Shown here: in pieces, positions 15,501 to 37,756 of the stretch
Position numbering within the stretch: position 1 is the stretch's first letter
Layout: every line of letters starts with the position of its first letter
Assembly (NCBI GenBank): GCA_014379105.1
Contig: JACMML010000038.1
Location: forward strand, 1 to 59,641
Reading direction: 5' to 3'
DNA from: Phycisphaerae bacterium
GTDB taxonomy: Bacteria > Planctomycetota > Phycisphaerae > Tepidisphaerales > Tepidisphaeraceae
Length of the DNA stretch: 59,641 bases
Program-made: the position numbers and the translations under genes
The notes under the pieces: generated by a model
Told to the model about the DNA's origin: nothing
Database searches by the model: none
What the model saw: the letters and a program-made list of their open reading frames with translations, nothing else

Positions 15501-16376
15501 CATTTCGGTGATCTGCCCGCCGATCAAGCCGTTGTCCACAACGCCGAGCGTCGTACCCTGCACCGCGGTGACGAACTCGGTCTGCAGCCCAACGCCGAGC
15601 CCATCGCCGCCCAGATACGTCAGTCCGTGCCGAAGCTTGTCCACCATGTAGGTGTAGGGAGAACTCGTTGGCGTGGCGGAATAGTCGATCAGCAGCACGT
15701 TGCTGTTGACGTTGAACTTTCCGAGGCTCCCCAGATCGAACGATTTGGTGCTGACCAGGCTCGCCGGCCCGACCGCGATCTCGCCGGCGGCGCTGCCGGT
15801 GAAATTCAACGACTGGAACGCCTGCGATCCTGCGAGCACCACTTTCACCGGCGAATTGACATGCAGCGAATCCAGCACCACACCGCTCACCCGGCCATCA
15901 AACCGATACGCCTCAAAGCCCTCGATCGACGCGGTGATGCCCGATTCGGTCAGCGCGATGACACCGGCATCCACCAAACTGCCGCCGCCGTCGACAGAAC
16001 CAATGACGACCAAGTCGGCGCTGGTCGTCCCGACGATCGACAGTGTGTCGCCGGCACCCGTGCCGGCATCGACGGTTGTATTATCCACAATCGCACTGCT
16101 AATCGTGACCTTGTCATTGCCGCCCAGCGCGTTGATGACGATGGAATCCACATCGGTGCTGGGAAACAGGCTGACGATGCTGTCAGCGAGATCACTGACG
16201 ACGACCTTGTAATCCGTGCCCACACGCAGCACCGAAATCGTGTCGGCATCGCTCGTCCCGGTAACGGTCAAGAGACGAGAAGTCGAATCAAGCGAAGCGC
16301 TGAGCAATTGTCGTGTTTCCAGCGATTCGACGAGCGGACGGACGGCGCGTGCCAAGACAGATGCGGTATTTTTCAT
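12504..16376 (-). CDS. Giant secreted multi-domain protein (4x FN3, dockerin-like Ca-binding repeats, Calx-beta-like module, unknown C-terminal domain)
   Basis: Start moved to ATG 16376 (MKNTASVLARAVRPLVESLETRQLLSAS). Two dockerin-like repeats (GDANLDGRVNGSDYALTD, GDFNIDLVVNGSDYAFAD). Four FN3-like units with LTWTD/LNWTD motifs. GGGGGGSGGG linker. Calx-beta-like block (VSVLDGSEVMEGD...VSFEAGETTRHIEIGV). About 230-aa C-terminal domain ending HDGFPCYEVYLYH.... Confidence 0.85.
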   Translation of the reverse strand: MKNTASVLARAVRPLVESLETRQLLSASLDSTSRLLTVTGTSDADTISVLRVGTDYKVVVSDLADSIVSLFPSTDVDSIVINALGGNDKVTISSAIVDNTTVDAGTGAGDTLSIVGTTSADLVVIGSVDGGGSLVDAGVIALTESGITASIEGFEAYRFDGRVSGVVLDSLHVNSPVKVVLAGSQAFQSLNFTGSAAGEIAVGPASLVSTKSFDLGSLGKFNVNSNVLLIDYSATPTSSPYTYMVDKLRHGLTYLGGDGLGVGLQTEFVTAVQGTTLGVVDNGLIGGQITEMGTFKNIPNKAVIVSYTWFGDANLDGRVNGSDYALTDTGLSSGHDDWFYGDFNIDLVVNGSDYAFADTGFSSQFVGAIGIYNAAPSSIYVQPLWEGAARVSWRGSASKYIVFASMDEGDYVQVAEVSGATHYDFRSPIAGQVRFRVAAVYASGTATQQHISTSRTREALHPVTKLEWAEQIAEDDGSDHTGYPYPSPPAAGEPDAPTALAAAAYLNTQRIDLTWTDNSNNETGFVVLRGENGSSFAEIATVAAGVTTFYDNTAAGGKTYYYRVIARNAMGDSAPSNTSSALAILKRPVGLYPEIVNWSTIDLNWTDPNPYEAGYVIESYDFINEEWLPLATTPANTQSYRVTGLTAQTDYQFRIKAVGERDSLFRASAVVTTPAWGHGDLPAAEELNIESIDGNTVRLTWTDNASDESGYSLRYRVVNGDGTFGEWVTVTIGANGDGSGSFDLGGLESETEYEFELIPLDPDAGGGGGGSGGGPSQSANFTTGVQAGRIGVFGLDHPELTPPYISVDWTPMEDTTYPNGQTVEYYKTAELHDETVTIIFTGLKTHRYIDLGLLLNADEDSYVRPEGASHGQLAIKVDGTEVPMEGSFSEPGWNRPLFYESWSPVEGENIIPHTDDTLTLTITGANYSRASHAWWIQSFWLSTIMPSVSVLDGSEVMEGDTQKLVYTVTRNMYGAERFPLVAPLEWFVAPSTASGNDLKIAPPTTVSFEAGETTRHIEIGVAVDRKLEGMENLAVQVQPSEDYLIGQKKALGFIYDQPVRLQISTFIKQYLVEDPGRFDSIFQGDGRGGLTGNGPAEFDEENTRFKTRQIADLEFVVDPNEPSAGNLLLVPSSISAQTGISVRYNASTSTVGHSGLPIFDPWVTISQAAMDDDILDDDVLKVDVGQAGTGGMTMSTRSIDSRTIEITIVGEAGNPLAVAAPAINYDLVLTIQVNADGYLNWWIEGAHDGFPCYEVYLYHELIYQHDSADQTPLSLGPPEEFGVSASGTIF

Positions 16377-16573
16377 TGAAAGACCCAAAAACGGGACTGG
16401 CGAAAACGATCGCACCCCTTGTGCTCCCTCTCCTCGACCACGAATCTGGGGAAAGTTTAGCGCTCTGAAAAGCATGAGTCAAGAAAAATATCGGGTTTCT
16501 CCCGATGGCATCGTGGCTCGCTCTGGGCACCGCGCCTGCGGTTCTGATGATCACGCATCGCTCGCGTTTTCCG

Positions 16574-16762
16574 GCGCATCGGTCGCTGCGCACTGCGTTT
16601 CAGTCGCTGCGCACTCCGCATCGGTCCCTGCGCACTGCGCATCGGTCGCCGCGCACTGCGCATCGGTCGCCGCGCACTGCGCATCGGTGACCGCGTACTG
16701 CGCATCGGTCCCTGCGCACTGCGCATCGGTGATTGCGTAGTGCGCATTGGTCGTTGGTTCGC
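16574..16762. repeat. Tandem array, about 9 copies of a 21-bp unit (consensus GCGCATCGGTCGCCGCGCACT)
   Basis: Read directly: units start at 16574, 16595, 16616, 16637, 16658, 16679, 16700, 16721 and 16742. The central units are near-identical and the outer ones degenerate. Unit junctions form GCGCA-C-TGCGC palindromes. The array lies in the 656-bp gap between divergent genes. Confidence 0.9.
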
Positions 16763-19399: not shown

Positions 19400-20197
19400 T
19401 TACCGCGTCGCCTGCCCGTCGCCCCAGCCCGGGCCGGCGATGTGGCCTTCTTCGATCTTCAGGTCTTCACGGCGGCTGATCTTGGCGACCGTGCCGTCGC
19501 TGATCCAGATGATGCGGTCGCTGACCGCCAGCATCTTGTGATCGTGCGTGGCGCTTATGATCGTGACGCCTTTTTCCTTGTTCAGACCGCGCAGCAGCTC
19601 GATGATGATTTTGCCCGTATTCAGGTCCAGATTGCCCGTCGGCTCGTCGGCCAGGATGATCGTCGGATCGTTGGCGAATGCCCGCGCGATTGCGACGCGC
19701 TGCTGCTGGCCGCCGGAGAGTTCGCTGGGTTTGTTTTTCCAGCGGTGCTGTAGATCGACGCGCTTCAGAATCTCCATCCCCTTGTCCTGAGCGTCGGCGG
19801 TGTTCAAGCCGGCGAAGACCATCGGCAGCGTGACGTTCTCCAGCGCCGTCATTACCGGGATGAGATTAAACGTCTGGAAGATGTACCCGATCTTACGGCA
19901 GCGCATCCACGCCAACTCGTAACTGTCCAGCTGCGCGATATCCACTTCGTCGATATAGACCTTGCCCTCACTTGGCTTATCCAGGCCGCCGATCATGTTG
20001 AAGAACGTGGACTTGCCCGAGCCCGATGGGCCCATGATGGAGATGTATTCGCCGCGCTCGATCGAGACGGTGACGCCTTTGAGCGCCCGCACGATCTCCG
20101 TGCCCATCTTGTACTCGCGCTTCACGTCGATCGTGCGAACGGTGTATTCGGCGAGTTCGGTGGACGGGCCGTTGGTTGCTTCCGCGGCTTGTGTCAT
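19400..20197 (-). CDS. ABC transporter ATP-binding protein (MacB/LolD/FtsE-type)
   Basis: Walker [10 protein letters not shown], signature [14 protein letters not shown], Walker [14 protein letters not shown]-loop ATHD. Start moved to ATG 20197, which is preceded by GGAGAG. The ORF-track start at 20317 would overlap hicA. Confidence 0.93.
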
Positions 20198-20211
20198 TTT
20201 TCTCTCCGCGG

Positions 20212-20439
20212 TTACTGATCTCGAATAAATTCCTGCCACGTCATTCCAATGTCTTTCGCAATCTGTTGCAGCATCGGCGGGCGGATATCTTCTCCGTGAT
20301 CCGATACGGTAGTACACCGTCCGTCTAGGTGACGAAATTGCCTGTGTGAACCGCGTTGACGCACTTCGACAAATCCGAGTTTCAACAGAATCCGAGCAAC
20401 TTCACGGGGTTTTAGTACCGGCGCCTTGGGCATTGTCAC
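20212..20439 (-). CDS. hicA: Type II toxin-antitoxin system HicA family toxin (mRNA interferase)
   Basis: 75 aa. LKPREVARILLKLGFVEVRQRGSHRQFRH matches the HicA/YcfA dsRBD-like signature including the GSH motif. The GTG start overlaps the hicB stop (GTGA). An alternative ATG lies at 20433. Confidence 0.88.
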   Translation of the reverse strand: MTMPKAPVLKPREVARILLKLGFVEVRQRGSHRQFRHLDGRCTTVSDHGEDIRPPMLQQIAKDIGMTWQEFIRDQ

Positions 20440-20645
20440 GCAACCTTTACATTCTGCGTGCCCACAAACTCAGCCTGAAGCTGAGGCTCTCCGTCTTCCA
20501 GCAGCATCTGGATTACTTCGGTCAGTCGTTGGTTCAGTTCTTCGGTCGTTCGACCTTGCGCATGAGCGCCCGGAAAACCGGGAACATATGCAACCAACAT
20601 GTCTGAATCGGCTTCGCGTTCGATGATGGCTGTGAAATTTCGCAT
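20436..20645 (-). CDS. hicB: Type II toxin-antitoxin system HicB family antitoxin (short form, no DNA-binding domain)
   Basis: 69 aa. FTAIIEREADSDMLVAYVPGFPGAHAQGRTTEELNQRLTEVIQMLLE matches the HicB/UPF0150 N-terminal fold. It lies immediately upstream of hicA. Confidence 0.85.
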   Translation of the reverse strand: MRNFTAIIEREADSDMLVAYVPGFPGAHAQGRTTEELNQRLTEVIQMLLEDGEPQLQAEFVGTQNVKVA

Positions 20646-20664: not shown

Positions 20665-21666
20665 TCAGGCGTCCACCCGCATCGCGGCGATCGGTTCCAT
20701 CCGGGCGGCCTGCAATGCCGGGAGGATCGCGCCGCCGACGCTGAGGACCATGCCTACCAGCAGTGTGATGAGCACATTGGTCCAGACCTGATCCCAGAGC
20801 ACGTGATAAAACGCCGCCCCGCCGAAGCTGAGCGCGGCCATGCCGAAACTGACGCCGAGGCCGACAATTATGCCAAGCAGCGTGCCGACCGTGCCTTGAA
20901 ACAGGCTCTCCAGCAGGAATAGTTTGACGATGAACCCGTCGAGCGCGCCCAGGCACTTCATCGTGCCGATTTCGCGGAAACGTTCGGTCACGCTCATCAG
21001 CATCGCGTTGAGAATGCCGACAAACGCCACCAGCAGCGCCAGCGCCATCACCCAGCGCGTCTGGATGCGGTTGCCTTCGATCTCCTTCGGCTCGATGGGC
21101 ACGCCCTTGCTCAGCATCACGGCCTTGAGGTCTTCGGGCAGATTGATTTCGCGGCGGACGGCTTGGCGTTCGATCGATTTGTCGATCAGCAGCTTCACGG
21201 ATTTAAGCATCTCCGGTTCGGATGTCAGCAGCTTGTTCAGGTCTCCCCCCGCCAACGGGAGCGGGCCGCCTAGCGATTCTTTGACCGCGTCCCAATCGTC
21301 GCCATTGAATGCCTGTTTCGGATCGAACGGCGTCGCGTCCTTCGCGGCCGGGGGCGCGTACTGGGCGGCTTTGCGGATGTCCCCTTCCAGGGATTTTATC
21401 TCCGCATCGAGCGTATCCCGCTTCTTCTTCAGGGTCTTCACCGCTTCATTGTCCGGCCGCTGCATTTCCTGGGTCCATTGACGCATCCCATCGACGAGTG
21501 TCTCGGTGGTCATGATTGAACACAGAAACGCGAGCGCCAGCACGATCGCGCTGGTGACAAGCATGCTGCGGCTGAGCCGCAGACGAATGGATTTCCACGC
21601 GATCTCGATCGCCTTGCTGAGCGGCAATTTGATCTGGCGGGCGACGTTTTGCTTTTGCTTCGACAT
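20665..21666 (-). CDS. ABC transporter permease, FtsX-like (4 TM, helical ectodomain)
   Basis: 333 aa. TM1 (MLVTSAIVLALAFLCSIM), then a ~170-aa charged, coiled-coil-like extracytoplasmic region. C-terminal FtsX module (GILNAMLMSVTERFREIGTMKCLGA... plus two further TMs). Confidence 0.88.
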   Translation of the reverse strand: MSKQKQNVARQIKLPLSKAIEIAWKSIRLRLSRSMLVTSAIVLALAFLCSIMTTETLVDGMRQWTQEMQRPDNEAVKTLKKKRDTLDAEIKSLEGDIRKAAQYAPPAAKDATPFDPKQAFNGDDWDAVKESLGGPLPLAGGDLNKLLTSEPEMLKSVKLLIDKSIERQAVRREINLPEDLKAVMLSKGVPIEPKEIEGNRIQTRWVMALALLVAFVGILNAMLMSVTERFREIGTMKCLGALDGFIVKLFLLESLFQGTVGTLLGIIVGLGVSFGMAALSFGGAAFYHVLWDQVWTNVLITLLVGMVLSVGGAILPALQAARMEPIAAMRVDA

Positions 21667-21817: not shown

Positions 21818-22192
21818 CTATTTCTTCTCCAACGGGATGCCGACCAGCCCTTTGCGGATCAGCATTTCCAGGAACTTGACCGTCGGCACCTGGGCCTCGC
21901 GGAGATTTAGATCGTACCGCGCCGCGAGGCGCTTGATGATCTGGCGGACGGTGGTTTTTCCGTCGATGCTTTCCCAGACGAAGACGCCGATCGTATCAAA
22001 CTCGTAGGACTTGGTGGCGTTCTCCGGCAGACGGAAGATCAGCCGGCCCCACTTGGGTTGACGCATCTGCACCTTCAGCATGCCGCCGTCGTCGGGCAGC
22101 GGCTGCATAACGGCCTCGACAAGCCGGATCGGCTTGGCCTCGAGCGCCTGCTCGGGGGTGAGGCGAGGTTTTTTCTTTCGGAACAGCATCAC
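21818..22192 (-). CDS. PqqD-like (RiPP-recognition-element-like) small protein
   Basis: 124 aa. YEFDTIGVFVWESIDGKTTVRQIIKRLAARYDLNLREAQVPTVKFLEMLIRKGLV follows the PqqD winged-helix pattern (ligand strand, then 'G.rtv.eI...l...y....e....dv..fl..L...gl'). Confidence 0.75.
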   Translation of the reverse strand: MMLFRKKKPRLTPEQALEAKPIRLVEAVMQPLPDDGGMLKVQMRQPKWGRLIFRLPENATKSYEFDTIGVFVWESIDGKTTVRQIIKRLAARYDLNLREAQVPTVKFLEMLIRKGLVGIPLEKK

Positions 22193-22210: not shown

Positions 22211-23125
22211 TCACATATTCTTAGCCCAGCCGACGCTGGTCAGTAATTCGGTCATCGCCGTCGGCTCGTTGCCCTGCACGATAACAATGCGATTTCTCGT
22301 TTCATCGTGCAATCCGAGCACCGTCAGCTCCTTTGCCAGAGTCCGCATCCAGAAAAAGCGGCGCTTGCGTCGCAGGATTCCCTGTCGAACCTTCACCGGC
22401 TCGGCGGCCGTTTCGAGCGCCAGGTCGGTGACGCTACGGAGCAGCTTATAGAACTTTCGGACCGTCTTTTCTTGCTGGGCAAGCCAGGAATCAATCGGCT
22501 GCCTAATCAGCGCCAGTGAAGCCGGGCCGATCTGCCGGAGTGTCATCGTCGAACGCTTTTTGCGAAACGACAACGACAAATCCCCGGCATTAAGCCGATA
22601 CCACTGCATCGTCCACCCGGCCGGGGTGCGGCAGGAGATGTCAAAGAGCGACCACGCCTGCGGCACATCACGCAATTGCTCCTGCAATGACGGCAAGACC
22701 TTCGCCGCCAGCACCGTATCCCGTTCTTTCACGTGATGGACGATTTCCATCACCCGGCCGCTGCGTTCACTCCAGCCGAGCCACACGTCGCGGCCGGGCG
22801 GGTCGGCCTCGACGTACAATCGCGAAACGCGCCACGCCGCCGCATCCGGCATCGCGTGATCCTTCGCTTCCGCCGCGGCGAGCGCGCCCACTTCCGACCG
22901 CATGGCGCGCTCGGCCCATTTCGCCGAATCGCCGCGCTTCATCATCCGCCAGCGAATCCCCAGCTTCGCCTGCTGCAGGTCCGCCAGCAGGATCATTCCC
23001 TGATCCCAATCGCCGTCCACTTTCACCGGATTCCACGAATCCGGAATTCGGAGCTGCCAGCCGTGCCAGGCGAGCAGTTGCGATTTGCGATTTGCGATTT
23101 GCGATTCTTCAGTACGTTCGGACAT
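22211..23125 (-). CDS. Hypothetical cytoplasmic protein (no recognisable domain)
   Basis: 304-aa ORF with GC-rich third positions, 18 nt upstream of the PqqD-like gene and 22 nt downstream of the OPT-like gene. No TM segments or known motifs were seen. Confidence 0.75.
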   Translation of the reverse strand: MSERTEESQIANRKSQLLAWHGWQLRIPDSWNPVKVDGDWDQGMILLADLQQAKLGIRWRMMKRGDSAKWAERAMRSEVGALAAAEAKDHAMPDAAAWRVSRLYVEADPPGRDVWLGWSERSGRVMEIVHHVKERDTVLAAKVLPSLQEQLRDVPQAWSLFDISCRTPAGWTMQWYRLNAGDLSLSFRKKRSTMTLRQIGPASLALIRQPIDSWLAQQEKTVRKFYKLLRSVTDLALETAAEPVKVRQGILRRKRRFFWMRTLAKELTVLGLHDETRNRIVIVQGNEPTAMTELLTSVGWAKNM

Positions 23126-23147: not shown

Positions 23148-25160
23148 TCAATATGGCGACTGAAACACGCTCTTACTAATAAACACCAGTCCCAGCGCCA
23201 GCATCATCATCAATCCCATGCCGCAACTGAAGCCGGCGAAAAAGACGATGATGTACTGCTTCCACATATCTCCGAATTTTTTCGCGAAATAGAACCGGCC
23301 CAGCAGCGCGCCGATGAACTGCGGAATGATCACATGCGGCGCGGCCTGATCGAGCCCGCGGATCAGCCCGTAAACCAGCAGGATCGGGGCGCCGAAGAAT
23401 CGCAGGATGCCGAATGACGCGACGGCGGTTCCGAAGCCCGCGTAGAGGACCCACGGCTTGAACGCCTCGGCGAACGCGCTGTTCTCCCCGCCGGGCATCG
23501 TGCGGCTCATCAATACGCCTTGCCGGTAGGCTTGCGCTTCCCACATCTTCTCGGTGAACGGAAACGACTGGCTCGGCACCGGTGCGATGCTCCAGATGAA
23601 CTGGCTGAAGACCAGCGTGGAGATGAATGCGATCGGTAGGATGAAGATCTCGGCCTTGAACATGGAGATTATCTTCGTGCCGGTTAACTCCGTCTTGCGG
23701 AAATAGAGCGTCTGCGATCCGTAATTGTGCGCCGGGAACGGCGCGAACCAGATGGCGGCGCCCTGGTAGCCGGTGAGGATGAACGTGGCCTCGCGGACGA
23801 AGGGGATATTCACCGAGTTGCCGACGATGCCTTCCATCCTGGCCGAGACGTAGCTGATGATGGGCGTGTAGACGAATCCGTAGAACACAAACACGCCCAG
23901 CAGCACCCAGGTCACTTCCGAGCCGAGCCCGTCCTTATGAGCCGCGCGCAGAAGGATGTATGCGGTGAGAATGGTGATGGAGGTGACCGTCACGTAAATC
24001 AGCACCGCGATCCAGAGCTTAATATCTCCTCGCCCCGCCGGCGGGTGCAGGAACGCGGCCAAGCCTTGCCGCTCGCCGCCGGACTGATTGCCCTTCATCT
24101 TGCGGGCGGCGCGCAGGCTTTGGAAGACGTGGTAGAAGCCGATCGCCGCGATCGCGAACGTGAGGCCTAGTCCGAAGCTGAAATAGAAATCCAGCGTGTT
24201 GCTGTTGAGCGTGCGGATCGCGCCCATCCCCGGCGACCAGTTGTGCAGCGCCCCCGAGTGATAAAGCACTTGGTTGAGAATGATGCCGATCACCAGCCCC
24301 GCGAAGCTGCCGATCATCGCCCAGAACGGGAGCACCATGCCGAGGATGACCAGCCCGATATCAAACGACAACATCATCGGCACGGCCGGGAGGAGGCGCT
24401 CGGTGTTGTCGGTGAGGTCCTTGAACGGCAGCGGGAATATCTCGATCTTCTCCGGCAGAAACGCCCCGCTGACCGCCGGCAGCGCCAGGTAGATCGTGGC
24501 GAACGCCATGCCCAGCACCGAGCCGAAGCTGAAGACGCGCCATCGCCAGGTCTCCTGCCCGCCGGACGCGTCCGCCAGCGCCGTCACGCCCGCCGCACCG
24601 ACCGGCGCCATCGGGAACGGGAGTTTTTCCACGTCGCTGGTGATGCGGTACATGATGTACCCGAGCCCGAAGTTATCGAACCGGCTGAGCACCATCCCCA
24701 GCGCCATCAGCCCGATCGGCGCAAGCCATTCGCGGTGCAGAAAACTGCGCGAGCCCAATACGTCCACCGATTGCGGCGCGTACCACGACGGTATCTTGTC
24801 GGCGATGCCGAACTTCCGCATTTCCTCCGACTGCACGAGAAACTGCTGCCAAATGAGCCCCTGTCCGATGCCCGAATGCACCAGCGTCGCACCGGCCATG
24901 TAATACAAAAGGTAAATTTCCGGCCGCGAGAGTTGCGTGAAGGAACGGCGTGCGACTTCCATGAAAAGGATGATCGTCACCCACTGCGCCGCCGGCCCGA
25001 TATCCGCCCCGGTCACCAGCTGCATATACATGCTGGCCGGCGTCATGATCAGCCCGACAAAGAGCCCACCAAGGATCGCCTTAAGCCCGAACGCATCCAC
25101 CCACGTATCGGGCGGCTTCATCAGGTCGCGGAATTGTTGGAGTTCTTTGTCTTCAGTCAT
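23148..25160 (-). CDS. Polytopic (~16 TM) membrane protein, OPT-family-like putative peptide transporter
   Basis: 670 aa with about 16 hydrophobic segments by eye. The N-terminal block FGLKAILGGLFVGLIMTPASMYMQLVTGADIG resembles the OPT signature (T.RA...G...G......n.Y.gLk.G). The family assignment is not verified. Confidence 0.8.
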   Translation of the reverse strand: MTEDKELQQFRDLMKPPDTWVDAFGLKAILGGLFVGLIMTPASMYMQLVTGADIGPAAQWVTIILFMEVARRSFTQLSRPEIYLLYYMAGATLVHSGIGQGLIWQQFLVQSEEMRKFGIADKIPSWYAPQSVDVLGSRSFLHREWLAPIGLMALGMVLSRFDNFGLGYIMYRITSDVEKLPFPMAPVGAAGVTALADASGGQETWRWRVFSFGSVLGMAFATIYLALPAVSGAFLPEKIEIFPLPFKDLTDNTERLLPAVPMMLSFDIGLVILGMVLPFWAMIGSFAGLVIGIILNQVLYHSGALHNWSPGMGAIRTLNSNTLDFYFSFGLGLTFAIAAIGFYHVFQSLRAARKMKGNQSGGERQGLAAFLHPPAGRGDIKLWIAVLIYVTVTSITILTAYILLRAAHKDGLGSEVTWVLLGVFVFYGFVYTPIISYVSARMEGIVGNSVNIPFVREATFILTGYQGAAIWFAPFPAHNYGSQTLYFRKTELTGTKIISMFKAEIFILPIAFISTLVFSQFIWSIAPVPSQSFPFTEKMWEAQAYRQGVLMSRTMPGGENSAFAEAFKPWVLYAGFGTAVASFGILRFFGAPILLVYGLIRGLDQAAPHVIIPQFIGALLGRFYFAKKFGDMWKQYIIVFFAGFSCGMGLMMMLALGLVFISKSVFQSPY

Positions 25161-25339: not shown

Positions 25340-28300
25340 CTATGCAAGGCGGACAACCTCACTTGCCTCCGTTGTCACCACCTCGTCCGGCACCACCTTG
25401 AACAGCTTCTTACTTTCGTCAACGTAGTCTTTCATGCGCAGCGGGCTGAGGGATCGCCATTGCAGGAACTGTTTGCGGAGTTCGGTCAGGAAGCTGCGGT
25501 TCATGCGCCACCAGCTGCCGTCGTCGCCGCTGAGGCGCTGGAGGACGACCTGCACTTCGTAGATGTCGGGGAATTCGCCGGGGTGGATCAGCAGAAGCAG
25601 GTGCTGGCGGACGCCGAGATCGAACGGGGTGAGCCAGATCACCGTCTTGAGCCCGCGCGTGGGTTTGCCGTCGCCGCTTTGGCCTGAGAAGGCCTCGATC
25701 TTTCCGGCGCTGAATTTGCCGATCGACCCTTCCTGATGCGCCTCGAAAAACTCGGCAAGGTACGCGACGACGCCTTGCGCGGCGGTGCGGTTAATCGTGA
25801 ACGGGAGCCCGGCGATGATCTGGTCGTCCTTCGGCGCCGGGACGCGCCAGCTTCGCTCGATGCTCGGGGCGGCGATCTTGCTGGCGAGCCTGGCCGGGAC
25901 CAGCGCCGACAGCAGGACGATCAGCAGGATCAGACCCATCGTCATCATCGCGCTGGTGCCAGAATAGTTCATCGTGACATTGCCCAGCCAGCCGAGCTTG
26001 AGCAGCGCGGTGCCGGCGCCCTGGCCGATGATATAGCCGAAGACTGAGCCGATCAGGCCGTACGTCAGCGCCTCGGCGACGAAGAGCACGCCTACGTGAA
26101 ATGGCGCTAGTCCGAGTGAGGTATAGACGTGGATCTCACGCCGCCGCTCGGCGATGGAGCCCATCATCGTGTTGAAGATGATCAACCCGCCGATCGCAAG
26201 CGGAATCGCGACATTCGCCCCGCCGCCGATGCTGGAAAGATTGCTGGCGGACACCAGCTTCACGCCGTCGCTGTAACCGGCGAAGGTCGCCAGTGCGAAG
26301 CGTTTGGTCATGTCATCCACTATCGCTTTAACCTTCGCATCCCGATCGGCGGGCTTGTCGTCATCGGCCGCGACGCGGACGCCGACGGTGCGCAGCGTCG
26401 TATTCTCCAGCCGCTTGCTGATCGCGGCCGGCACGATCGCGAACTGCGTGGAGGGCAGGTGCTCGTAAGTCGCCGACGCCTCGGCGGCGGATGAATTTGC
26501 ATCGAGATCGAGCGTGTTGGCGTCATTCCCGTCGGTGAGCTTGCGGCCGCTGGCATCGAGCGCGCCGGAGCTGTATTTCAGCGGCGCGATCGATTCTCCG
26601 GAAAGCGTATTCACGCGCTGGTCAAAATCATTAGCGTCATACGTGCCGGCGATTTCCAGCTGCATCCCCGCGATCTGCAGCTTGCCGCCGACCTTCAGCT
26701 TCATCTGGTCCAGCGTGGATTGCGAGAGATAGACGATGTTGGTCTCGCCGTTCTCGAGCCGGTCAAAATTAGTGATGACCTGGCTGATCGGCGAGAGCAA
26801 GCTTTCACCAGGCGAGAGCCCGAGCATCGCCTGCACCGGAACCACGCGGGCGGCCGCGCCGTCGATCCCGACGCCGCCGGCAACCAGATGCACCTGGTCC
26901 TTGGTGTCGCCGGCGTTGAGCGTCCACCAGCGCTGTACGAACGTCTGGCCGACATACGCCGACTTCAGCGAATCAATCGCCTCAACCGGCATCGATCGGA
27001 AACCGCGCTGCCGCAGCAGCAAACCGGGATACGTGGCATCAACGCCGGTCGGCAGGGAGATCGTGCTTTGGTAGCGGCTGGCCGACGTGAAACACAGGAC
27101 CGCGAACGTGATCAGCACCACCGTGATGCTCGTCAGCGCCGTGCGGAACTTGCGGCGGCGCATGTTCGCGATGCCGAGCATCACCGCGCTCATCAGCACG
27201 CTCGCGCTGGCAATGCTCGCCCCGTCGGACGTGCCGCGGCCGGAGCGGAGGCGCTTTAGCTCGGTATCGAATTTCCCGTACACCACGCTGATGACGATCA
27301 GCGACATCAACACGATCGCGAACGCAAGAATGATGATCAGCGGACTGGAGCTGATCTTAAATGCCGGGTGAAACATCCACAGCGCCGCGGCCATCAGCGC
27401 GAAGATGCCTGATGCGTAGGCGATCTGGCGATAGATGCTCGGCGTGCCGATCACCAGGCGCTCCATGCAGAACGCAAACGGCACCGACAGCAGCAGCAGG
27501 AAGATCGCGGCATAGATCACGTCATTGGCCATCTTCTGCACCGCGTCGTAGACGCGCGCTTCGTCGGCCCAACCGCCGGTGGCGTTACGCATCATGCCGT
27601 CGGCATCGTCGGCCTGGAGCAGTTTTTTGGCGGTGTCGATTTGCGCCGCGGCGTTGCCGTGCATCGTGTCAATCAGCGTGCTGCTGACGCCGGCCTTACG
27701 GTATTGTTCGATGCGCGATTCATTGAGCCGCCAGAAATCGGTCGCGGTGACCAGCGCGATCGGACCCAGCCGACTGAGCTCCTTAACCAGGTAGCCGTCC
27801 CCTTCGCCGCGAGCGCCTTCCTGCTGGCGCGGCTTGTTGGCTTCGGGCATGTTGAGCAGTGCGATGCGGTTCCCGATTCGGCCATACCGAAACAGCAGAT
27901 ACGCGCGCGATCCCGGCTCCAGCGCCCCGGCCATCATCTGGTTGTAGAGCGCGGCGTTGAATCGCTGCGGCTCGGAGTTGCGCCGGGCATCCATCAGCTG
28001 CACTTCGCCGAGCGATTGCAGAAAGCGCGGGTCATAGAGCCCAAGCAGTGTGTATTCCTGACAATCGAAAACGACCGATTTAAGCGGCACGATCGTCTGG
28101 TCGAGGTTGACAGTCTGCTTGAGGTCCGCCGCCTGCTTGCCGAGGTCGGTGCAGGAGAGGATAGCGCCGGTGCCGGGCTCGAAGCGGTAGACGTTGACCG
28201 CCATCAGCTTCAGATCGCCGACGCGCGGCAGGCCTTCAAATTCATACCGGCCTTCCGAATCGCAATTCACGATTTCCAATCGCCGCACGCCCACCGCATA

Positions 28301-30397
28301 CGGCATCCATCGCACGGGCGGAATTTTCCGCACGGACGTGATGTATTCGTAGGTCGCGATAAACCCGTCGCGCGGCAGGTCAGGGATCGGCTTGCCCGAT
28401 GCGGTGGAGACGACTTGGACTTTAAAGTCGTTGATGTTCCGGCGGTATTCCGGTTGGCCGAGGAATTTGGGGTCGTCCCACGCCTGGCGCAGCAGATCGA
28501 GCACCGCGGCGGCCTGGAGCTTGATCGAATCGAGCCTGAGATTCGCCAGCGTGTCGGCCGGGGTGTCGCGGCGCGGGCGCAGGTCTTCCAGCGTCGCCAT
28601 TGTGAACGCGGGAATTCCCCACGGCACGCCGACTTCCACCGGCAGCCCGATCGGCGCGGTAAGATAGGAGACCGGCGTTCGCGTGAGCTTCAGCGGCTCA
28701 AAATCCATCACCTTCGCCAGCGGCTTGAACCATGCCGCCGCCGTCTCGGGCTTGCCATTGCCGGCCGCTTTTTCGAACCATTCGCGATGTTCCTGAATCT
28801 GCGTAATCGCCGACTGCTTCGCCACCGCGCCCCAGTACACCGGCCCGACGCGCTGGCCCATGTCCGCCAAGTCCAGGCCAACCATCAGCTCGATCAGGCG
28901 GTCATCGTTGTTTCGCGGATTCGGGTCGTTGCTGCGTTGGACCGAGCCGGGCAGATCGTCATTCAGGTTCTTCGCCAGCCACTGGTAAAGCTCGATGCGT
29001 CGCTCGAGTTGCTGCTTACGGTGCTGCCACTGCTGGAGCAGGCCTTCGGTGCCGGACGTGTCGCCGAGCCGCGTCATCACGCGCTGGAGCATCGCCGGCG
29101 CGTCCTGCCCGAATTCGGCAAGGGATTTAGGGCTCGCGGTGACATGGAAGCGGATCTGCCCCAGGCGAATCAATCGCGACTGGACGTCGTCAATCTGTTT
29201 GCGCTTCGCGTCATCGAGTTGCTCCGCCGGCAACACGCGGAGGCGAAACAGCTCGTCCTGACCCAGCGCAACGTCGGTTTCGATGACCTTAATGATGCGG
29301 TTGATCAGCGTGCGATGTCGGACGATATCCAGCCAGGTGGGATCGCCATTCAATCCGCGCGCGAGGGAGAGATCGTGCTCGATCGCTTTAAGCTGCGGGT
29401 CCGCCTCTTCGTCAATTTTTCCCTGCCAGGGACGCGGCGCATCGCCCAGGGCCATCATCATCTGGCGCGAGCCCATGAGGTTGTAGGCATCAGCACCGGT
29501 GAACGCGACCATCACCGGTCGCCGTGGCGGGTTGTTGGCAAAGTCGCGTAGCATTTCCAGCGCCGCCGCGGTCTGCACCGCCTGGCCGGCCGCGGGGGAC
29601 AGGTCGTACGCGACGCCGGTTGCGTCAAACGGCGCGACGATCGTCAGCGCCGCCCACGCCTTGCCGGCATTCCCGCGCTCGAAGCTGGCCGGCAGCGGGT
29701 TTTTCGGAGAAACGTACGCGTAAAGATTCGACGCCTTCACGCGTTTCCAACTCGCAGACACCTTCAGATATCCGTCGGCCACGCCGGAGGACCGCATCTG
29801 CTCGGCAAATCCGTCGTCGCCGACAAAGAACCTCGGCAAGTTCACGGCGATCGGCAACTCGTGCGATCGCATCTCCAGTTGAGACAGATCCTTCGACCCG
29901 ATGATGATGACTGCGCGGGCACCGAAGTAGAACAGGTTGCGCCACTTGTCCTTGGCGGATGATTCCACCACCGCGATGTTGCCGTCGATCAGCGTCGGCT
30001 TGAGCTCTTTGTATTCGGCCGTTCCGCAATAGACGAGCTTGCCGGTAAGCCCTTCGGCGGGCGTCGTATTCAGGCGCACGCCGGCCGGGAAAAGTGGGAA
30101 AACCGGGACGCTTCGTCCGGCGATCGTCAGCGTTGCTTCGGTCGTCTGCGGCACGAGCATGTCGAACTCATGCACCTGCAGTTTTACGCCGGGCAATGCG
30201 CGGATTTCGGTTGTGAGATAGTTGAGTGCCGCGTTATATCCAGGCGATCCGGCGCTCCGCGTGCTCGGCGCGGCAAGTGCCTGTAAATCGCGGGAAAATC
30301 GCTCGCCGTCAAACGCCGCGTGGACGGTGGCCGCGAGCCCGAGCAGGCCCAGCAGAACCAGTCGCATTAACGTGGCCGGGCGATTGATCATCAGCAT
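25340..30397 (-). CDS. Giant fused double-FtsX (MacB-type) permease with ~1000-aa PA/M28-like ectodomain
   Basis: Start moved to ATG 30397 (MLMINRPATLMRLVLLGLLGLAATVHA signal/anchor). PA-like block GKLVYCG...GNIAVVESS...GARAVIIIGS. M28-like blocks TIVAPFDATG, SPAAGQAVQTAAALEMLRDF, VMVAFTGADAYNLMGSRQ. Three TMs follow, then RRRKFRTALTSITVVLITFAVLCF, a ~330-aa ectodomain and an FtsX module (IIFNTMMGSIAERRREIHVYTSLGL). A ~190-aa C-terminal soluble tail completes the protein. Confidence 0.88.
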   Translation of the reverse strand: MLMINRPATLMRLVLLGLLGLAATVHAAFDGERFSRDLQALAAPSTRSAGSPGYNAALNYLTTEIRALPGVKLQVHEFDMLVPQTTEATLTIAGRSVPVFPLFPAGVRLNTTPAEGLTGKLVYCGTAEYKELKPTLIDGNIAVVESSAKDKWRNLFYFGARAVIIIGSKDLSQLEMRSHELPIAVNLPRFFVGDDGFAEQMRSSGVADGYLKVSASWKRVKASNLYAYVSPKNPLPASFERGNAGKAWAALTIVAPFDATGVAYDLSPAAGQAVQTAAALEMLRDFANNPPRRPVMVAFTGADAYNLMGSRQMMMALGDAPRPWQGKIDEEADPQLKAIEHDLSLARGLNGDPTWLDIVRHRTLINRIIKVIETDVALGQDELFRLRVLPAEQLDDAKRKQIDDVQSRLIRLGQIRFHVTASPKSLAEFGQDAPAMLQRVMTRLGDTSGTEGLLQQWQHRKQQLERRIELYQWLAKNLNDDLPGSVQRSNDPNPRNNDDRLIELMVGLDLADMGQRVGPVYWGAVAKQSAITQIQEHREWFEKAAGNGKPETAAAWFKPLAKVMDFEPLKLTRTPVSYLTAPIGLPVEVGVPWGIPAFTMATLEDLRPRRDTPADTLANLRLDSIKLQAAAVLDLLRQAWDDPKFLGQPEYRRNINDFKVQVVSTASGKPIPDLPRDGFIATYEYITSVRKIPPVRWMPYAVGVRRLEIVNCDSEGRYEFEGLPRVGDLKLMAVNVYRFEPGTGAILSCTDLGKQAADLKQTVNLDQTIVPLKSVVFDCQEYTLLGLYDPRFLQSLGEVQLMDARRNSEPQRFNAALYNQMMAGALEPGSRAYLLFRYGRIGNRIALLNMPEANKPRQQEGARGEGDGYLVKELSRLGPIALVTATDFWRLNESRIEQYRKAGVSSTLIDTMHGNAAAQIDTAKKLLQADDADGMMRNATGGWADEARVYDAVQKMANDVIYAAIFLLLLSVPFAFCMERLVIGTPSIYRQIAYASGIFALMAAALWMFHPAFKISSSPLIIILAFAIVLMSLIVISVVYGKFDTELKRLRSGRGTSDGASIASASVLMSAVMLGIANMRRRKFRTALTSITVVLITFAVLCFTSASRYQSTISLPTGVDATYPGLLLRQRGFRSMPVEAIDSLKSAYVGQTFVQRWWTLNAGDTKDQVHLVAGGVGIDGAAARVVPVQAMLGLSPGESLLSPISQVITNFDRLENGETNIVYLSQSTLDQMKLKVGGKLQIAGMQLEIAGTYDANDFDQRVNTLSGESIAPLKYSSGALDASGRKLTDGNDANTLDLDANSSAAEASATYEHLPSTQFAIVPAAISKRLENTTLRTVGVRVAADDDKPADRDAKVKAIVDDMTKRFALATFAGYSDGVKLVSASNLSSIGGGANVAIPLAIGGLIIFNTMMGSIAERRREIHVYTSLGLAPFHVGVLFVAEALTYGLIGSVFGYIIGQGAGTALLKLGWLGNVTMNYSGTSAMMTMGLILLIVLLSALVPARLASKIAAPSIERSWRVPAPKDDQIIAGLPFTINRTAAQGVVAYLAEFFEAHQEGSIGKFSAGKIEAFSGQSGDGKPTRGLKTVIWLTPFDLGVRQHLLLLIHPGEFPDIYEVQVVLQRLSGDDGSWWRMNRSFLTELRKQFLQWRSLSPLRMKDYVDESKKLFKVVPDEVVTTEASEVVRLA

Positions 30398-30626
30398 TTG
30401 ACCTGGGGCAACGACTAAGGCAGGCGCCAACCCGCCGATGGTCCGGCGATTATGCCGGGTAAAGGGGTAAATGCAAAACAGTAACGACTTTGCACGCATC
30501 GACGCGCCCGTGATTTTGCGTCCCGCAATGGCTTGCAAATCGACTTACGCATGTAGAGAATCTTCCCGCATCACCGGTGCGGAGCCGGCGACGCCACTTC
30601 GGGGATTTTTGATCTGGGACCACCGC

Positions 30627-36043: not shown

Positions 36044-37756
36044 GTGCTCGTTTATCGGACCCTGGCCGCGTCTCTAGCTATCGCCGTCGCTGCGCGGCTG
36101 TCTATCGCGACCGATTATTACGTTTCGCCCACGGGCAACGACGCCGCTGCGGGCAATTCGTCGGGCACGGCCTGGGCGAGTCTGAGCAAGGTCAATTCGT
36201 CAACCTTCAACCCTGGCGACCGCATCCTGCTACAGCGCGGCGGGGAATGGCGCGAATCGCTGGTAGTCCCCTCGTCCGGAACGGCCGCTGCGCCGCTTGT
36301 CATCGATGCATATGGCTCGGGTGCGAAGCCCAAGCTGTGGGGAAGCGATCCGATTCCCGCTGCCTCTTTCCAGCCGTACTCAGGCAACGCCTACGTCGCT
36401 AACTATGGCCAAACCGTCAATGCCGTACTGTCGAACCAGGTATTCTACAACCACGCCATCAAGCTGAGTGGATTGAGCCAGAACAATCCGGCCAACATTA
36501 CTTACGTCCGCGACCATCCCGGCACCTGGTATCAGGCGGACGACGGCAAAGTCTACATCAACGCGCACGGCACCGATCCCCGGAACGGCACGGTCAATTT
36601 CACTGCTGCTGTTCGCGATGACGTCGTAAATGTCACGGATAAACACAACGTCGTTATCCGCAATGTGGTCGTGGATGAATCCGCCAAGGACAACGCCGGC
36701 TATGCGTTCCGGGTGATGCAAAGCTCGAACATCCGGATCGAGGACAGCGAAGCGTACCGCGCGGGCAAGCATCATTTTGGTACGATCAACTCGACGGGTT
36801 TTGTCGGCAAGGGGCTTTACAGCGCCTTCGTGCTGCCCAACCAGATCAGTTCCTCCGCGTACGTCTCCTACAGCGACGCGAGCAGGACTGACGACACCTC
36901 AGACTGGGACACCATCACAGCGGAGAACATGCCCGGGGCCGGGGCGTTTTACGCGCACGGGGACGGAAACGGGATTGGCAGAGTCAGCGTTAAGAACGTC
37001 ATTGCGCGTGGCACGCACGTGGACGCCAACCTTCGTCCGGGAACGCTCAGCCTGCAGAATATCACGCTCGAACAGGGTGCATCGCTCAACGTGGGCACGG
37101 ACTATACAATCGTCGATGGCGTGCAGGTGAAAGGCTACAACTCCTATATTTTTGTGACTGCGAGCAGTTCAATTCTTCAGAATATTGTTGCAAACAAGTA
37201 CGTCAATCAGACGCGCTACTACTCAGTGATCGATGACCACGGCCGGAATAATATCGTCCGGTTCAGCACGTTTGATATTGAGGATGGCGCGGCCTTGTCA
37301 TCGGTGGGCGGCAACGCGAACACGCAGTTTTATGGGAATATCGTGCGGAGCAAATCCGGCTTAGCGCTTCGCTGGCTTGGCAAAGACAACGGCTTGCGGG
37401 CGCACGATAATCTCTATTGGGGGCCGGGCCGCAACCGAATTTTGATCGATTTGGGCTATTTTGTGAACTATACCCCCGAGGAGTGGGCCGCGCTGGGTCT
37501 CGAGAGCAACTCCCACTTTGCCGATCCGCTCTTTCGCGATGCAGCAAATGGCGACTACACGCTTCTGCCCGGATCGCCGGCGCTGGGTTGGATCGGTATG
37601 AACGGCGGACTCAGCTCGATGCCGCTCTACGACGCGATGGGCAATCGGCGAACTAACGGCTACTACACGCTGGGTGCATTCGCCGGCACTGTTCCCGAGC
37701 CGAGCCTCTTGCTCCCGCTCGCGGCCGGTATCGGGCTGCTTCGTCGACGTCGATAA
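36044..37756 (+). CDS. Secreted right-handed beta-helix (pectate-lyase-fold) protein with PEP-CTERM sorting signal
   Basis: GTG start preceded by GGAGAGG, and a signal peptide. YYVSPTGNDAAAGNSSGTAWASL is a typical beta-helix N-cap. The C-terminus VPEPSLLLPLAAGIGLLRRRR has the PEP motif, a TM helix and an Arg cluster. Confidence 0.85.
   Translation: MLVYRTLAASLAIAVAARLSIATDYYVSPTGNDAAAGNSSGTAWASLSKVNSSTFNPGDRILLQRGGEWRESLVVPSSGTAAAPLVIDAYGSGAKPKLWGSDPIPAASFQPYSGNAYVANYGQTVNAVLSNQVFYNHAIKLSGLSQNNPANITYVRDHPGTWYQADDGKVYINAHGTDPRNGTVNFTAAVRDDVVNVTDKHNVVIRNVVVDESAKDNAGYAFRVMQSSNIRIEDSEAYRAGKHHFGTINSTGFVGKGLYSAFVLPNQISSSAYVSYSDASRTDDTSDWDTITAENMPGAGAFYAHGDGNGIGRVSVKNVIARGTHVDANLRPGTLSLQNITLEQGASLNVGTDYTIVDGVQVKGYNSYIFVTASSSILQNIVANKYVNQTRYYSVIDDHGRNNIVRFSTFDIEDGAALSSVGGNANTQFYGNIVRSKSGLALRWLGKDNGLRAHDNLYWGPGRNRILIDLGYFVNYTPEEWAALGLESNSHFADPLFRDAANGDYTLLPGSPALGWIGMNGGLSSMPLYDAMGNRRTNGYYTLGAFAGTVPEPSLLLPLAAGIGLLRRRR

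Follow-up and report, generated by a model that had tools for sequence, protein, structure and literature searches.

A giant FtsX/MacB-type permease with a predicted non-catalytic M28 aminopeptidase-like ectodomain, encoded in a conserved gene cassette of a Phycisphaerae bacterium

The DNA analyzed in this study (the window) comprises 59,641 nucleotides, positions 1 to 59,641 of contig JACMML010000038.1 (assembly GCA_014379105.1) from a Phycisphaerae bacterium of the family Tepidisphaeraceae. The gene considered here occupies positions 25340–30397 of the minus strand and is a single open reading frame (ORF) of 1685 codons that begins with ATG at 30397 and encodes 1685 amino acids, referred to below as the giant protein; the frame remains open 5' of this codon up to a TTG at 30538. 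It is followed on the same strand by genes for an OPT-family transporter, a conserved cytoplasmic protein of 304 residues (p304), a PqqD-like protein, a small FtsX permease and an ABC ATPase. These cassette genes recur in the same order and on the same strand in ~50 of the 82 loci that were fetched and searched with tblastn. The giant protein joins an extracytoplasmic region with the predicted fold of M28 aminopeptidases, an inserted protease-associated (PA) domain and a metal site that appears to be lost to a single permease unit of the FtsX/MacB type, and we hold the statements on its architecture given below with high confidence. All coordinates of the giant gene and of its cassette partners refer to the minus strand.

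A search of 5.8 billion proteins provided a set of 80 collinear relatives, most of which have 1560–1870 residues, the shorter ones lying on short contigs; this set was used for the profiles and column statistics described below. The closest relatives are 66–73% identical and come from metagenome-assembled genomes of Tepidisphaerales/Tepidisphaeraceae. When one genome per species was scanned, at least 541 were found to encode a member of the family, and most of these belong to the Planctomycetes-Verrucomicrobia-Chlamydiae (PVC) group. The initial annotation of this DNA allowed that the ORF might prove to be two genes joined by a sequencing frameshift. A frameshift or gene-fusion artifact was rejected because collinear relatives are present in many assemblies and the family occurs in so many genomes. 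Database names for the relatives are "ABC transporter permease," "FtsX-like permease family protein" or "hypothetical," and a full-text search of the literature found no paper on the family, on DUF6785/DUF6784 (see below) or on the gene combination.

Hydropathy analysis places a hydrophobic N-terminal segment at residues 10–28 and seven transmembrane (TM) helices at approximately residues 960–978, 992–1010, 1021–1039, 1086–1104, 1390–1415, 1435–1453 and 1482–1500. It follows from these positions that the first ectodomain has ~930 residues, the second ~285 and the tail after the last TM helix ~175–185; the two ectodomains are thus somewhat smaller than the ~1000 and ~330 residues estimated previously. 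Residues 1–28 (30314–30397; MLMINRPATLMRLVLLGLLGLAATVHA, followed by Ala) probably form a cleavable Sec signal peptide and not a TM1 anchor, as judged from hydropathy and from the N termini of the family, which have a median of 29 residues ahead of the fold, apolar runs with a median length of 13 and A-x-A-like endings. The M28 fold follows immediately after this segment, and no stalk intervenes.

The M28-like fold is distributed over three pieces. The N-terminal piece (residues 29–104; 30086–30313) is defined by HMMER alignments to the aminopeptidases 2ek8 and YwaD, by an AlphaFold2 (AF2) model and by Foldseek, and it is separated from the core (residues 231–320; 29438–29707) by the putative PA domain (residues ~105–230; 29708–30085; boundaries approximate), which aligns with the insert between the two M28 pieces of 2ek8 and YwaD and gives a weak Pfam PA match in homologue P0074. 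A second insertion, a helical bundle of ~180 residues (residues ~321–500; 28898–29437), lies between the strand that corresponds to the "E-E" motif and the next core strand of the fold; it is modeled by AF2 as six helices with pLDDT >90, and its length varies among homologues. In the distant homologue P0077 (2183 residues) this insertion is much expanded, and two stretches within it, …VKVLLAIVAVAVLLWLV… and …VALIVLPALICVLAAAGLYYVFVL…, are strongly hydrophobic and TM-like. The C-terminal part of the fold (residues 501–650; 28448–28897) includes the GLD509LAD512 strand, Glu588 and an invariant "TPxDT" motif formed by Thr602, Pro613 and Asp615. It is followed in the AF2 model by β-rich periplasmic domains with no family match (residues ~651–869; 27791–28447) and by a three-helix periplasmic stalk that leads into the membrane (residues ~870–955; 27533–27790). 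The motifs quoted in the initial annotation were all located, RSAGSPGY at residue 47, APFDA at 255, SPAAGQ at 267 and GADAYNLMGS at 301.

The relationship of the ectodomain to M28 proteins is apparent at the level of the family. Alone, the window protein scores below the Pfam M28 threshold (17.7 vs 21.3 bits), and a single-sequence search of PDB sequences with residues 26–433 gave no match; only the family profile was sensitive enough. The profile of the 80 homologues matches 2ek8 with an E value of 1.3e-17 (profile positions 26–320, running from the N-terminal M28 piece through the insert into the core), YwaD with 1e-9 and nicastrin with 8e-7. When the helical insertion was removed from the profile (spliced profile), the E values were 3.5e-19 for 2ek8, 1e-7 for nicastrin, 2e-4 for the transferrin receptor (TfR) and 7e-3 for nicalin. 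Three distant homologues exceed the Pfam M28 threshold by themselves (25.6–31.2 bits) and have weak PA and nicastrin matches. HMMER also aligns the sequence HTPNDTLD of 2ek8 with the family consensus dtPaDtld. The AF2 model of residues 29–955, computed on the family alignment, has a pLDDT of 94.2 and a pTM of 0.93, and its closest structures in a Foldseek search of the PDB are 2ek8 (4e-19), BSAP/YwaD (9e-18), PaAP (9e-15), TfR1 (4e-14) and GCPII/PSMA (1e-11). By profile and by model, the ectodomain is predicted, unambiguously at the family level, to have an M28 aminopeptidase fold with an inserted PA domain, as was suggested in the initial annotation from motifs, and the similarity is far beyond chance.

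The earlier comparison with the topology of TfR and PSMA stands only in part. The order M28(N)-PA-M28 is shared, but the anchor is C-terminal and not of type II, the helical bundle is inserted within the fold (residues ~321–500) and not appended to it, the N terminus is of the signal type and the best matches are bacterial, so that the ectodomain does not have the M28B/TfR architecture. The overall order in the AF2 model is M28(N), PA, M28(core), helical bundle, remainder of M28, β-rich domains and three-helix stalk. The bacterial PA-domain aminopeptidases of the M28 family, from Aneurinibacillus AM-1 (2ek8), Bacillus subtilis (BSAP/YwaD; 6hc6) and Pseudomonas aeruginosa (PaAP; 8ac7), have the same M28(N)-PA-M28 order, are the best matches by profile and by structure, and have the C-terminal TPxDT motif in common with the giant protein. 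They are soluble, active di-zinc enzymes of ~450 residues, whereas the giant protein has replacements of four of the five ligands and of the general base and has, in addition, the helical bundle within the fold, the β domains and a membrane domain. Nicastrin of γ-secretase, nicalin and TfR1 resemble what is proposed below for the giant protein in that a membrane-tethered M28-like ectodomain serves for binding or gating; GCPII/PSMA is an active M28B relative, and the PA (apical) domain is present in TfR and GCPII. All four are eukaryotic, single-pass proteins (type I or II) with a C-terminal helical domain and no ABC motor, and the giant protein differs from them in each of these respects.

The columns of the metal ligands were identified in HMMER alignments to 2ek8 and YwaD, except that the position of the second His was set by its spacing from the conserved GIP motif and not by structural superposition. 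In the giant protein, the His of the H-x-D motif is replaced by Pro256 (Pro in 57 of the 80 homologues), and the second-shell Asp of the same motif corresponds to Asp258, which is Asp or Glu in all 80. The bridging Asp is replaced by Gly271/Gln272, with Gln in 70 of 80. The general-base Glu, the first of the E-E pair, corresponds to Asp303 (Asp in 70, Gln in 5 and Glu in none of the 80), and the ligand Glu that follows it to Ala304, a position occupied by Ser, Gly or Ala across the homologues. The ligand Asp of the "xLDM" motif is retained as Asp509 (Asp in 74/80); this was evident after splicing out the helical insertion, which brings GLDL of the giant protein into line with the QLDM strand of 2ek8. 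There is no His in residues 575–600, where the second His was looked for, and the nearly invariant Glu588 lies close by. Even a generous census finds one of the five canonical ligands in 74 of the 80 homologues and two in the remaining 6, and never more. Because four of the five ligands are replaced in the giant protein, its homologues keep no more than two and the general-base Glu is missing, the canonical co-catalytic zinc site is predicted to be unable to form in the giant protein or in any sampled relative. The loss of the His, Asp and Glu-Glu ligands had been proposed in the initial annotation, and these alignments bear it out. Since the defining catalytic features of M28, the full set of five metal ligands and the general-base Glu, are both lacking, the ectodomain family should, on present sequence evidence, be filed as a non-peptidase homologue of M28.

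The residues around the former metal site are strongly conserved. In addition to the conservation of Asp258, Gln272, Asp303 and Asp509 given above, Asp512 is present in 78 and Glu588 in 73 of the 80 homologues, in a region where the average identity is ~40–50%, and the T602…P613-x-D615-T motif is also far above average. Because the pocket residues are so much more conserved than their surroundings, the pattern points to a metal site that has been remodeled into a predicted acidic functional pocket (Asp258, Asp303, Asp509, Asp512 and Glu588) and has not decayed, and a reading of it as a dead relic is not upheld. The same five carboxylates might instead bind metal, in which case the ectodomain would still be a peptidase and would shorten peptides before the OPT-like protein takes them up. 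Their strong conservation, including an Asp at the general-base position in most homologues, and the physiologically sensible pairing of a peptidase with an oligopeptide transporter speak for such an enzyme, but the giant protein has lost both His, the bridging Asp and the ligand Glu, and none of the 80 homologues retains more than two of the five ligands. We know of no active M28 enzyme that lacks these residues, and nicastrin, nicalin and TfR, the sequence relatives without these ligands, are non-catalytic. A persisting peptidase activity is considered very improbable for these reasons.

The membrane part of the giant protein contains one FtsX module. Pfam identifies it at residues 1400–1508 (E = 1.1e-12; 48.6 vs 25.5 bits) and finds no second FtsX match in the protein at E values up to 1. 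The region assigned to TM2 to TM4 (residues 1390–1510; 25868–26230) includes the coupling helix AERRREIHVYTSLGLAP and is aligned by HMMER to PDB sequences of MacB, with the ERxxEI motif of that helix included (E = 6.5e-9). It is preceded by a periplasmic core domain of the MacB type (residues 1106–1389; 26231–27082) and, before that, by a cytoplasmic linker, an amphipathic elbow helix and TM1 (residues 1041–1105; 27083–27277), which were recognized in the AF2 model and by an HMMER alignment of the sequence lmsAvlLGianMRrRklRTaLTsiTiv to the N-terminal region of MacB. The AF2 model of residues 940–1685 has a pLDDT of 81 and a pTM of only 0.55. In a Foldseek search it matches MacB (7e-12), YbbP (9ge7; 5e-6), LolC/LolE and HrtB, and also the isolated N-terminal domain of LolE (5udf) and the extracellular domain of YknZ (5f9q). 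In homologue P0021 the periplasmic domain exceeds the Pfam MacB_PCD threshold (28.7 vs 27 bits). Residues ~1060–1510 are accordingly modeled, as had been suggested, as a complete MacB-type unit consisting of the elbow helix, TM1, the periplasmic core, and TM2 to TM4 with the coupling helix.

By sequence the membrane part is assigned to the type VII ABC (FtsX/MacB) permease superfamily but outside its named equivalogs (Lol, MacB, FtsX and ADOP); the NCBIfam scores of the giant protein are 9 vs 362 bits for lolCE, 17 vs 255 for FtsX_Gneg and 20 vs 622 for ADOP. The systems of this superfamily (MacB, LolCDE, FtsEX, HrtBA and YbbAP) share with the giant protein TM1, a periplasmic domain of the Porter/Sabre type and TM2 to TM4 of FtsX with the coupling helix, and an ATPase like LolD, MacB or FtsE is likewise present in the giant cassette. 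The ~930-residue pseudo-peptidase module, a bundle of three TM helices and the C-terminal cytoplasmic domain are additional in the giant protein and, unlike in known type VII systems, the window contains no adaptor, outer-membrane duct or LolA-like partner.

The additional three-TM bundle (residues 956–1040; 27278–27532), with 68–75% conservation, is among the most conserved parts of the protein. The initial annotation took it as part of a second FtsX half, so that the giant chain would form an intramolecular pseudo-dimer; with such an arrangement no separate permease would be needed. Single-chain pseudo-dimers of this kind, YbbP and BceB, have 10 TM helices and two coupling helices (PMC12646458). 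YbbP, BceB and ADOP are, like the giant protein, large single-chain permeases of the FtsX family, but they carry two FtsX modules, whereas the giant protein has one, with seven TM helices after removal of the signal peptide. The bundle has the out-in-out-in topology of FtsX TM2 to TM4, YbbP is among the Foldseek matches noted above, and hhalign, with which the first TM triple was compared with the FtsX module and also with the whole second unit, aligns the last two helices in register, though weakly. The E value of this alignment is 0.13 and its probability 0.4%, and the bundle is not demonstrably FtsX. AF2 places ~4 residues between its first two TM helices, which leaves no room for a coupling helix in the first cytoplasmic loop; there is also no TM1 or stalk before it because the probable signal peptide abuts the M28 fold. 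Together with the low ADOP score and the conservation of a separate FtsX permease in the cassette, these features led to rejection of the double-FtsX arrangement, which we regard as hardly credible. A single FtsX unit, with its other half supplied by the small permease, is preferred.

The last domain (residues 1511–1685 and the stop codon; 25340–25867) is a family-specific cytoplasmic α/β domain for which, in agreement with the initial annotation, there is no match in Pfam, NCBIfam or PDB sequences. At E values up to 0.001 it matches 1341 cluster representatives (clusters at 50% identity). Among the 150 of these matches that were listed, the domain is at the C terminus of proteins of ~1500–1900 residues or in short, apparently truncated proteins, and by these sequence matches it is taken as specific to the giant family. 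Weak START/Bet v1-like Foldseek matches were obtained with the model of residues 940–1685 as a whole, and they provide only a lead for the C-terminal domain.

The cassette is found in Tepidisphaerales, Brocadiia, Pirellulales, Opitutales, Kiritimatiellia, Lentisphaerae/Victivallales and Sumerlaeota. In most loci the gene for a polytopic protein of 670 residues (23148–25160 in the window) adjoins the giant gene. The window protein itself has no Pfam OPT match, whereas 15 of 26 orthologues do (best E = 6e-12). It is 47% identical to its orthologue in locus L004, which passes the OPT threshold, while the giant proteins of the two loci are ~30% identical. Because of this similarity to a recognized member, it is assigned by transitivity as a divergent member of the OPT family, a classification made from sequence. 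No relative was found among PDB sequences with either the single sequence or a profile. From Tepidisphaerales to Verrucomicrobiota and Lentisphaerae, the OPT-like protein begins with an almost unchanged cytoplasmic peptide (MxEDKELQxFRDLM..PD; first 16 codons, 25113–25160), which may be a docking site for either the PqqD-like protein or the giant protein's C-terminal domain.

The next gene (22211–23125) encodes p304, which is present in 55 loci. Neither sequence nor profile searches revealed relatives of p304 in Pfam, NCBIfam or the PDB, a profile search of the 5.8 billion proteins returned hypothetical proteins only, and it has no invariant Cys, His or acidic residues suggestive of an enzyme. 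It is followed by a gene with a GTG start (21818–22192) for a protein of 124 residues of the PqqD family, which resembles the recognition elements of ribosomally synthesized and post-translationally modified peptides (RiPPs). The Pfam PqqD match of this protein is above threshold (E = 4e-12), as it is in all 10 sequences tested (the window protein and 9 orthologues), and the NCBIfam similarities, to ScmD and to the chaperones of lasso peptides and of PQQ, are sub-threshold. The PqqD-like protein is encoded in 50 of the 82 loci and appears to be fused to p304 in several of them. Clustering of ORFs of 18–110 residues outside the large genes found no conserved small ORF in the 82 loci and the window, although a very short or divergent precursor could escape this procedure. 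The cassette thus has the PqqD domain but lacks the other features of a RiPP cluster, since no gene for a precursor peptide was found and p304 matches no enzyme family. A periplasmic adaptor, an outer-membrane duct or a hydrolase conserved beside the cassette was likewise not found in the loci examined.

The small FtsX permease (20665–21666; 333 residues; Pfam FtsX E = 2e-19) is conserved in the cassette and consists of an elbow helix, TM1, a short helical ectodomain, and TM2 to TM4, the coupling helix being highly conserved. The length of its ectodomain varies from ~30 to 330 residues across the loci, and its NCBIfam scores are sub-threshold (46 vs 362 bits for lolCE and 42 vs 966 for MacB). 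The ABC ATPase (19400–20317, with the start probably at ATG 20197; Pfam ABC_tran E = 4.5e-35) is of the LolD/MacB/FtsE-like type and also scores sub-threshold in NCBIfam, with 230 vs 308 bits for LolD and 215 bits for the nucleotide-binding domain of MacB. A candidate second permease half and a candidate cognate ATPase are both encoded in the conserved cassette. In the window, the genes for these two proteins are separated by a HicA toxin (75 residues; Pfam HicA_toxin E = 1e-17) and a HicB-like antitoxin (69 residues) at 20212–20645 on the minus strand. The gap is ~100 nucleotides in other loci inspected (e.g. L008), and the HicAB pair looks like the insertion of a toxin-antitoxin system into the operon.

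The composition of the cassette is variable in some lineages. A polytopic DUF6785/DUF6784 protein of ~690 residues joins it in 24 loci and is absent from the window; its gene is just upstream of the giant gene or between those for the OPT-like protein and p304 (for example, L049 4927–6936, L012 7538–9652 and L004 18988–23098), and its similarity to the OPT-like protein is borderline in hhalign (probability 43%, E = 2e-4). The most distant clade, in which the giant proteins pass the Pfam M28 threshold, has the genes arranged as small FtsX, ATPase, giant and OPT-like, followed by a second, different ABC ATPase (L001 13143–13877; L004 16877–17623), suggesting that the ATPase is heterodimeric in this clade. 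On the Fontivita pretiosa chromosome (L003/L013), only the giant and OPT-like genes adjoin, and the p304 homologue P0273 is elsewhere in the genome, which indicates that the cassette can be split.

Other features of the window were also recorded. A gene on the minus strand (12504–16475) encodes a protein of 1323 residues with FN3 repeats and DUF3238, and upstream of it there is a 21-nucleotide tandem repeat (16574–16753; 8.6 copies, 83% matches, consensus GCGCATCGGTCGCTGCGCACT). On the plus strand, the gene at 36044–37756 encodes a secreted protein of 570 residues that ends in a PEP-CTERM-like sorting signal (VPEPSLLLPLAAGIGLLRRRR).

The arrangement of these proteins suggests that the giant protein may be the large subunit of a heteromeric ABC mechanotransducer of type VII (MacB/LolCDE type). 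From synteny and by analogy with LolC, LolE and LolD2, its MacB-type unit (here residues ~1083–1510) would pair with the small FtsX permease as a LolC/LolE-like heterodimer, and two copies of the LolD-like ATPase would bind the coupling helices of both. Mechanotransmission by type VII ABC systems is established for MacB, LolCDE, FtsEX and YbbAP (PMC5985334, PMC12646458). As in these systems, binding and hydrolysis of ATP would be expected to shift the TM1/TM2 stalks and the periplasmic core, and the motion would then be passed on to the ~930-residue periplasmic module located N-terminal to the TM domain of the same polypeptide. The initial annotation had envisaged an ATP-driven engine coupled to a non-catalytic ectodomain, and this general idea gains support from the conservation of an ABC ATPase in the operon.

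Nicastrin and the transferrin receptor use the M28 fold to bind and not to cleave. By its fold, its non-catalytic relatives and its acidic pocket, the pseudo-M28 module may similarly be a receptor or clamp for a peptide or for the N terminus of a protein. The nature of the cassette partners suggests that a captured periplasmic peptide could be released to the OPT-family protein for passage through the inner membrane and could be received in the cytoplasm by the PqqD-like protein and p304. A peptide is proposed as the ligand because the OPT-type transporter and the PqqD-like protein are both peptide-related, and the direction of uptake is proposed because the OPT transporters that have been characterized are importers. 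This full model, of ATP-powered capture and release by the pseudo-peptidase ectodomain followed by hand-over to the OPT-like protein and receipt by the PqqD-like protein and p304, is put forward tentatively, with expectations that fall somewhat short of even.

Several observations weigh against ATP-powered uptake. The characterized OPT transporters are driven by protons and work without an ABC motor, which makes a coupling to one hard to explain, and the type VII systems known to us export, extract or regulate, none of them assisting import. No gene for a precursor peptide, periplasmic adaptor, outer-membrane duct or hydrolase is conserved near the cassette. The putative heterodimer of the giant protein and the small FtsX permease is drawn from synteny, and in the window the HicAB pair intervenes between the permease and ATPase genes. 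The ligand-binding role is a prediction from sequence and fold. Furthermore, in RiPP maturation the action of PqqD-like proteins usually comes before export, a role that is better suited to an export route.

The cassette could, in that case, export a cytoplasmic and possibly RiPP-like peptide in two steps: the PqqD-like protein and p304 would bind it, the OPT-like protein would move it to the periplasm, and the type VII engine with its pseudo-M28 clamp would expel it or hand it on. PqqD proteins are peptide chaperones of RiPP maturation, the apparent fusions of the PqqD-like domain to p304 recall those of recognition elements to maturases, and MacB-type systems expel peptides from the periplasm, as MacAB-TolC does the enterotoxin STII. 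On the other hand, the cassette has neither a conserved small ORF in or beside it nor an adaptor or outer-membrane duct, p304 has no invariant residues of the enzyme type, members of the OPT family are importers, and a gene order kept across several phyla looks more like housekeeping than secondary metabolism. Export by this route is judged unlikely.

The absence of a conserved hydrolase gene also bears on a regulatory reading, in which the ATPase cycle would move the helical bundle and the degenerate peptidase so as to activate or restrain a periplasmic enzyme to which they are not linked, for example a cell-wall hydrolase. FtsEX-EnvC is a precedent for this logic: long helices and a metallopeptidase fold without metal ligands are likewise driven by an FtsX-type engine, and the degenerate LytM domain of EnvC regulates AmiA and AmiB (PMC7668044, PMC10214136). 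The small FtsX partner does match FtsX models, but below threshold. EnvC differs, however, in being a separate protein with an M23/LytM fold, whereas the M28/PA module of the giant protein is fused in cis and no amidase partner is evident. The FtsX equivalog score of the giant protein is far below the cutoff, the cassette has no conserved hydrolase gene beside it, and the OPT-like and PqqD-like partners have no place in the scheme, so that regulation of this kind is distinctly improbable.

Taken with ATP-powered peptide capture, the wide distribution of the cassette would extend the proposal to an undescribed envelope machine common to the PVC group, in which a type VII motor works a pseudo-aminopeptidase receptor together with the OPT transporter and the PqqD-like protein and p304, and in which ATP gates the capture and uptake of a peptide or serves a peptide signal. 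In this general form the proposal is possible, although we regard it as doubtful.

What is new here is a proposed type VII ABC mechanotransducer whose output module, a pseudo-enzyme, is fused to it, and a new, widely conserved cassette that encodes it. The three peptide-related parts of the cassette (the M28/PA fold, the OPT transporter and the PqqD-like recognition element) were not found together in any earlier report in the literature. Type VII ABC systems, such as MacB, LolCDE, FtsEX, BceAB and YbbAP, are among the few machines that turn cytoplasmic ATP into mechanical work outside the membrane, and each further type of cargo has taught new envelope biology. The giant family would add an output module of the nicastrin/transferrin-receptor kind, fused in cis, and, if the proposed mechanism is true, it would be the first type VII ABC system to serve import or sensing rather than export, extraction or the control of hydrolases. 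The gene order is fixed across Planctomycetota, Verrucomicrobiota, Lentisphaerota, Kiritimatiellia and Sumerlaeota, and, because cultured hosts such as Fontivita pretiosa exist, the cassette is a testable entry into the unexplored envelope physiology of the PVC group.

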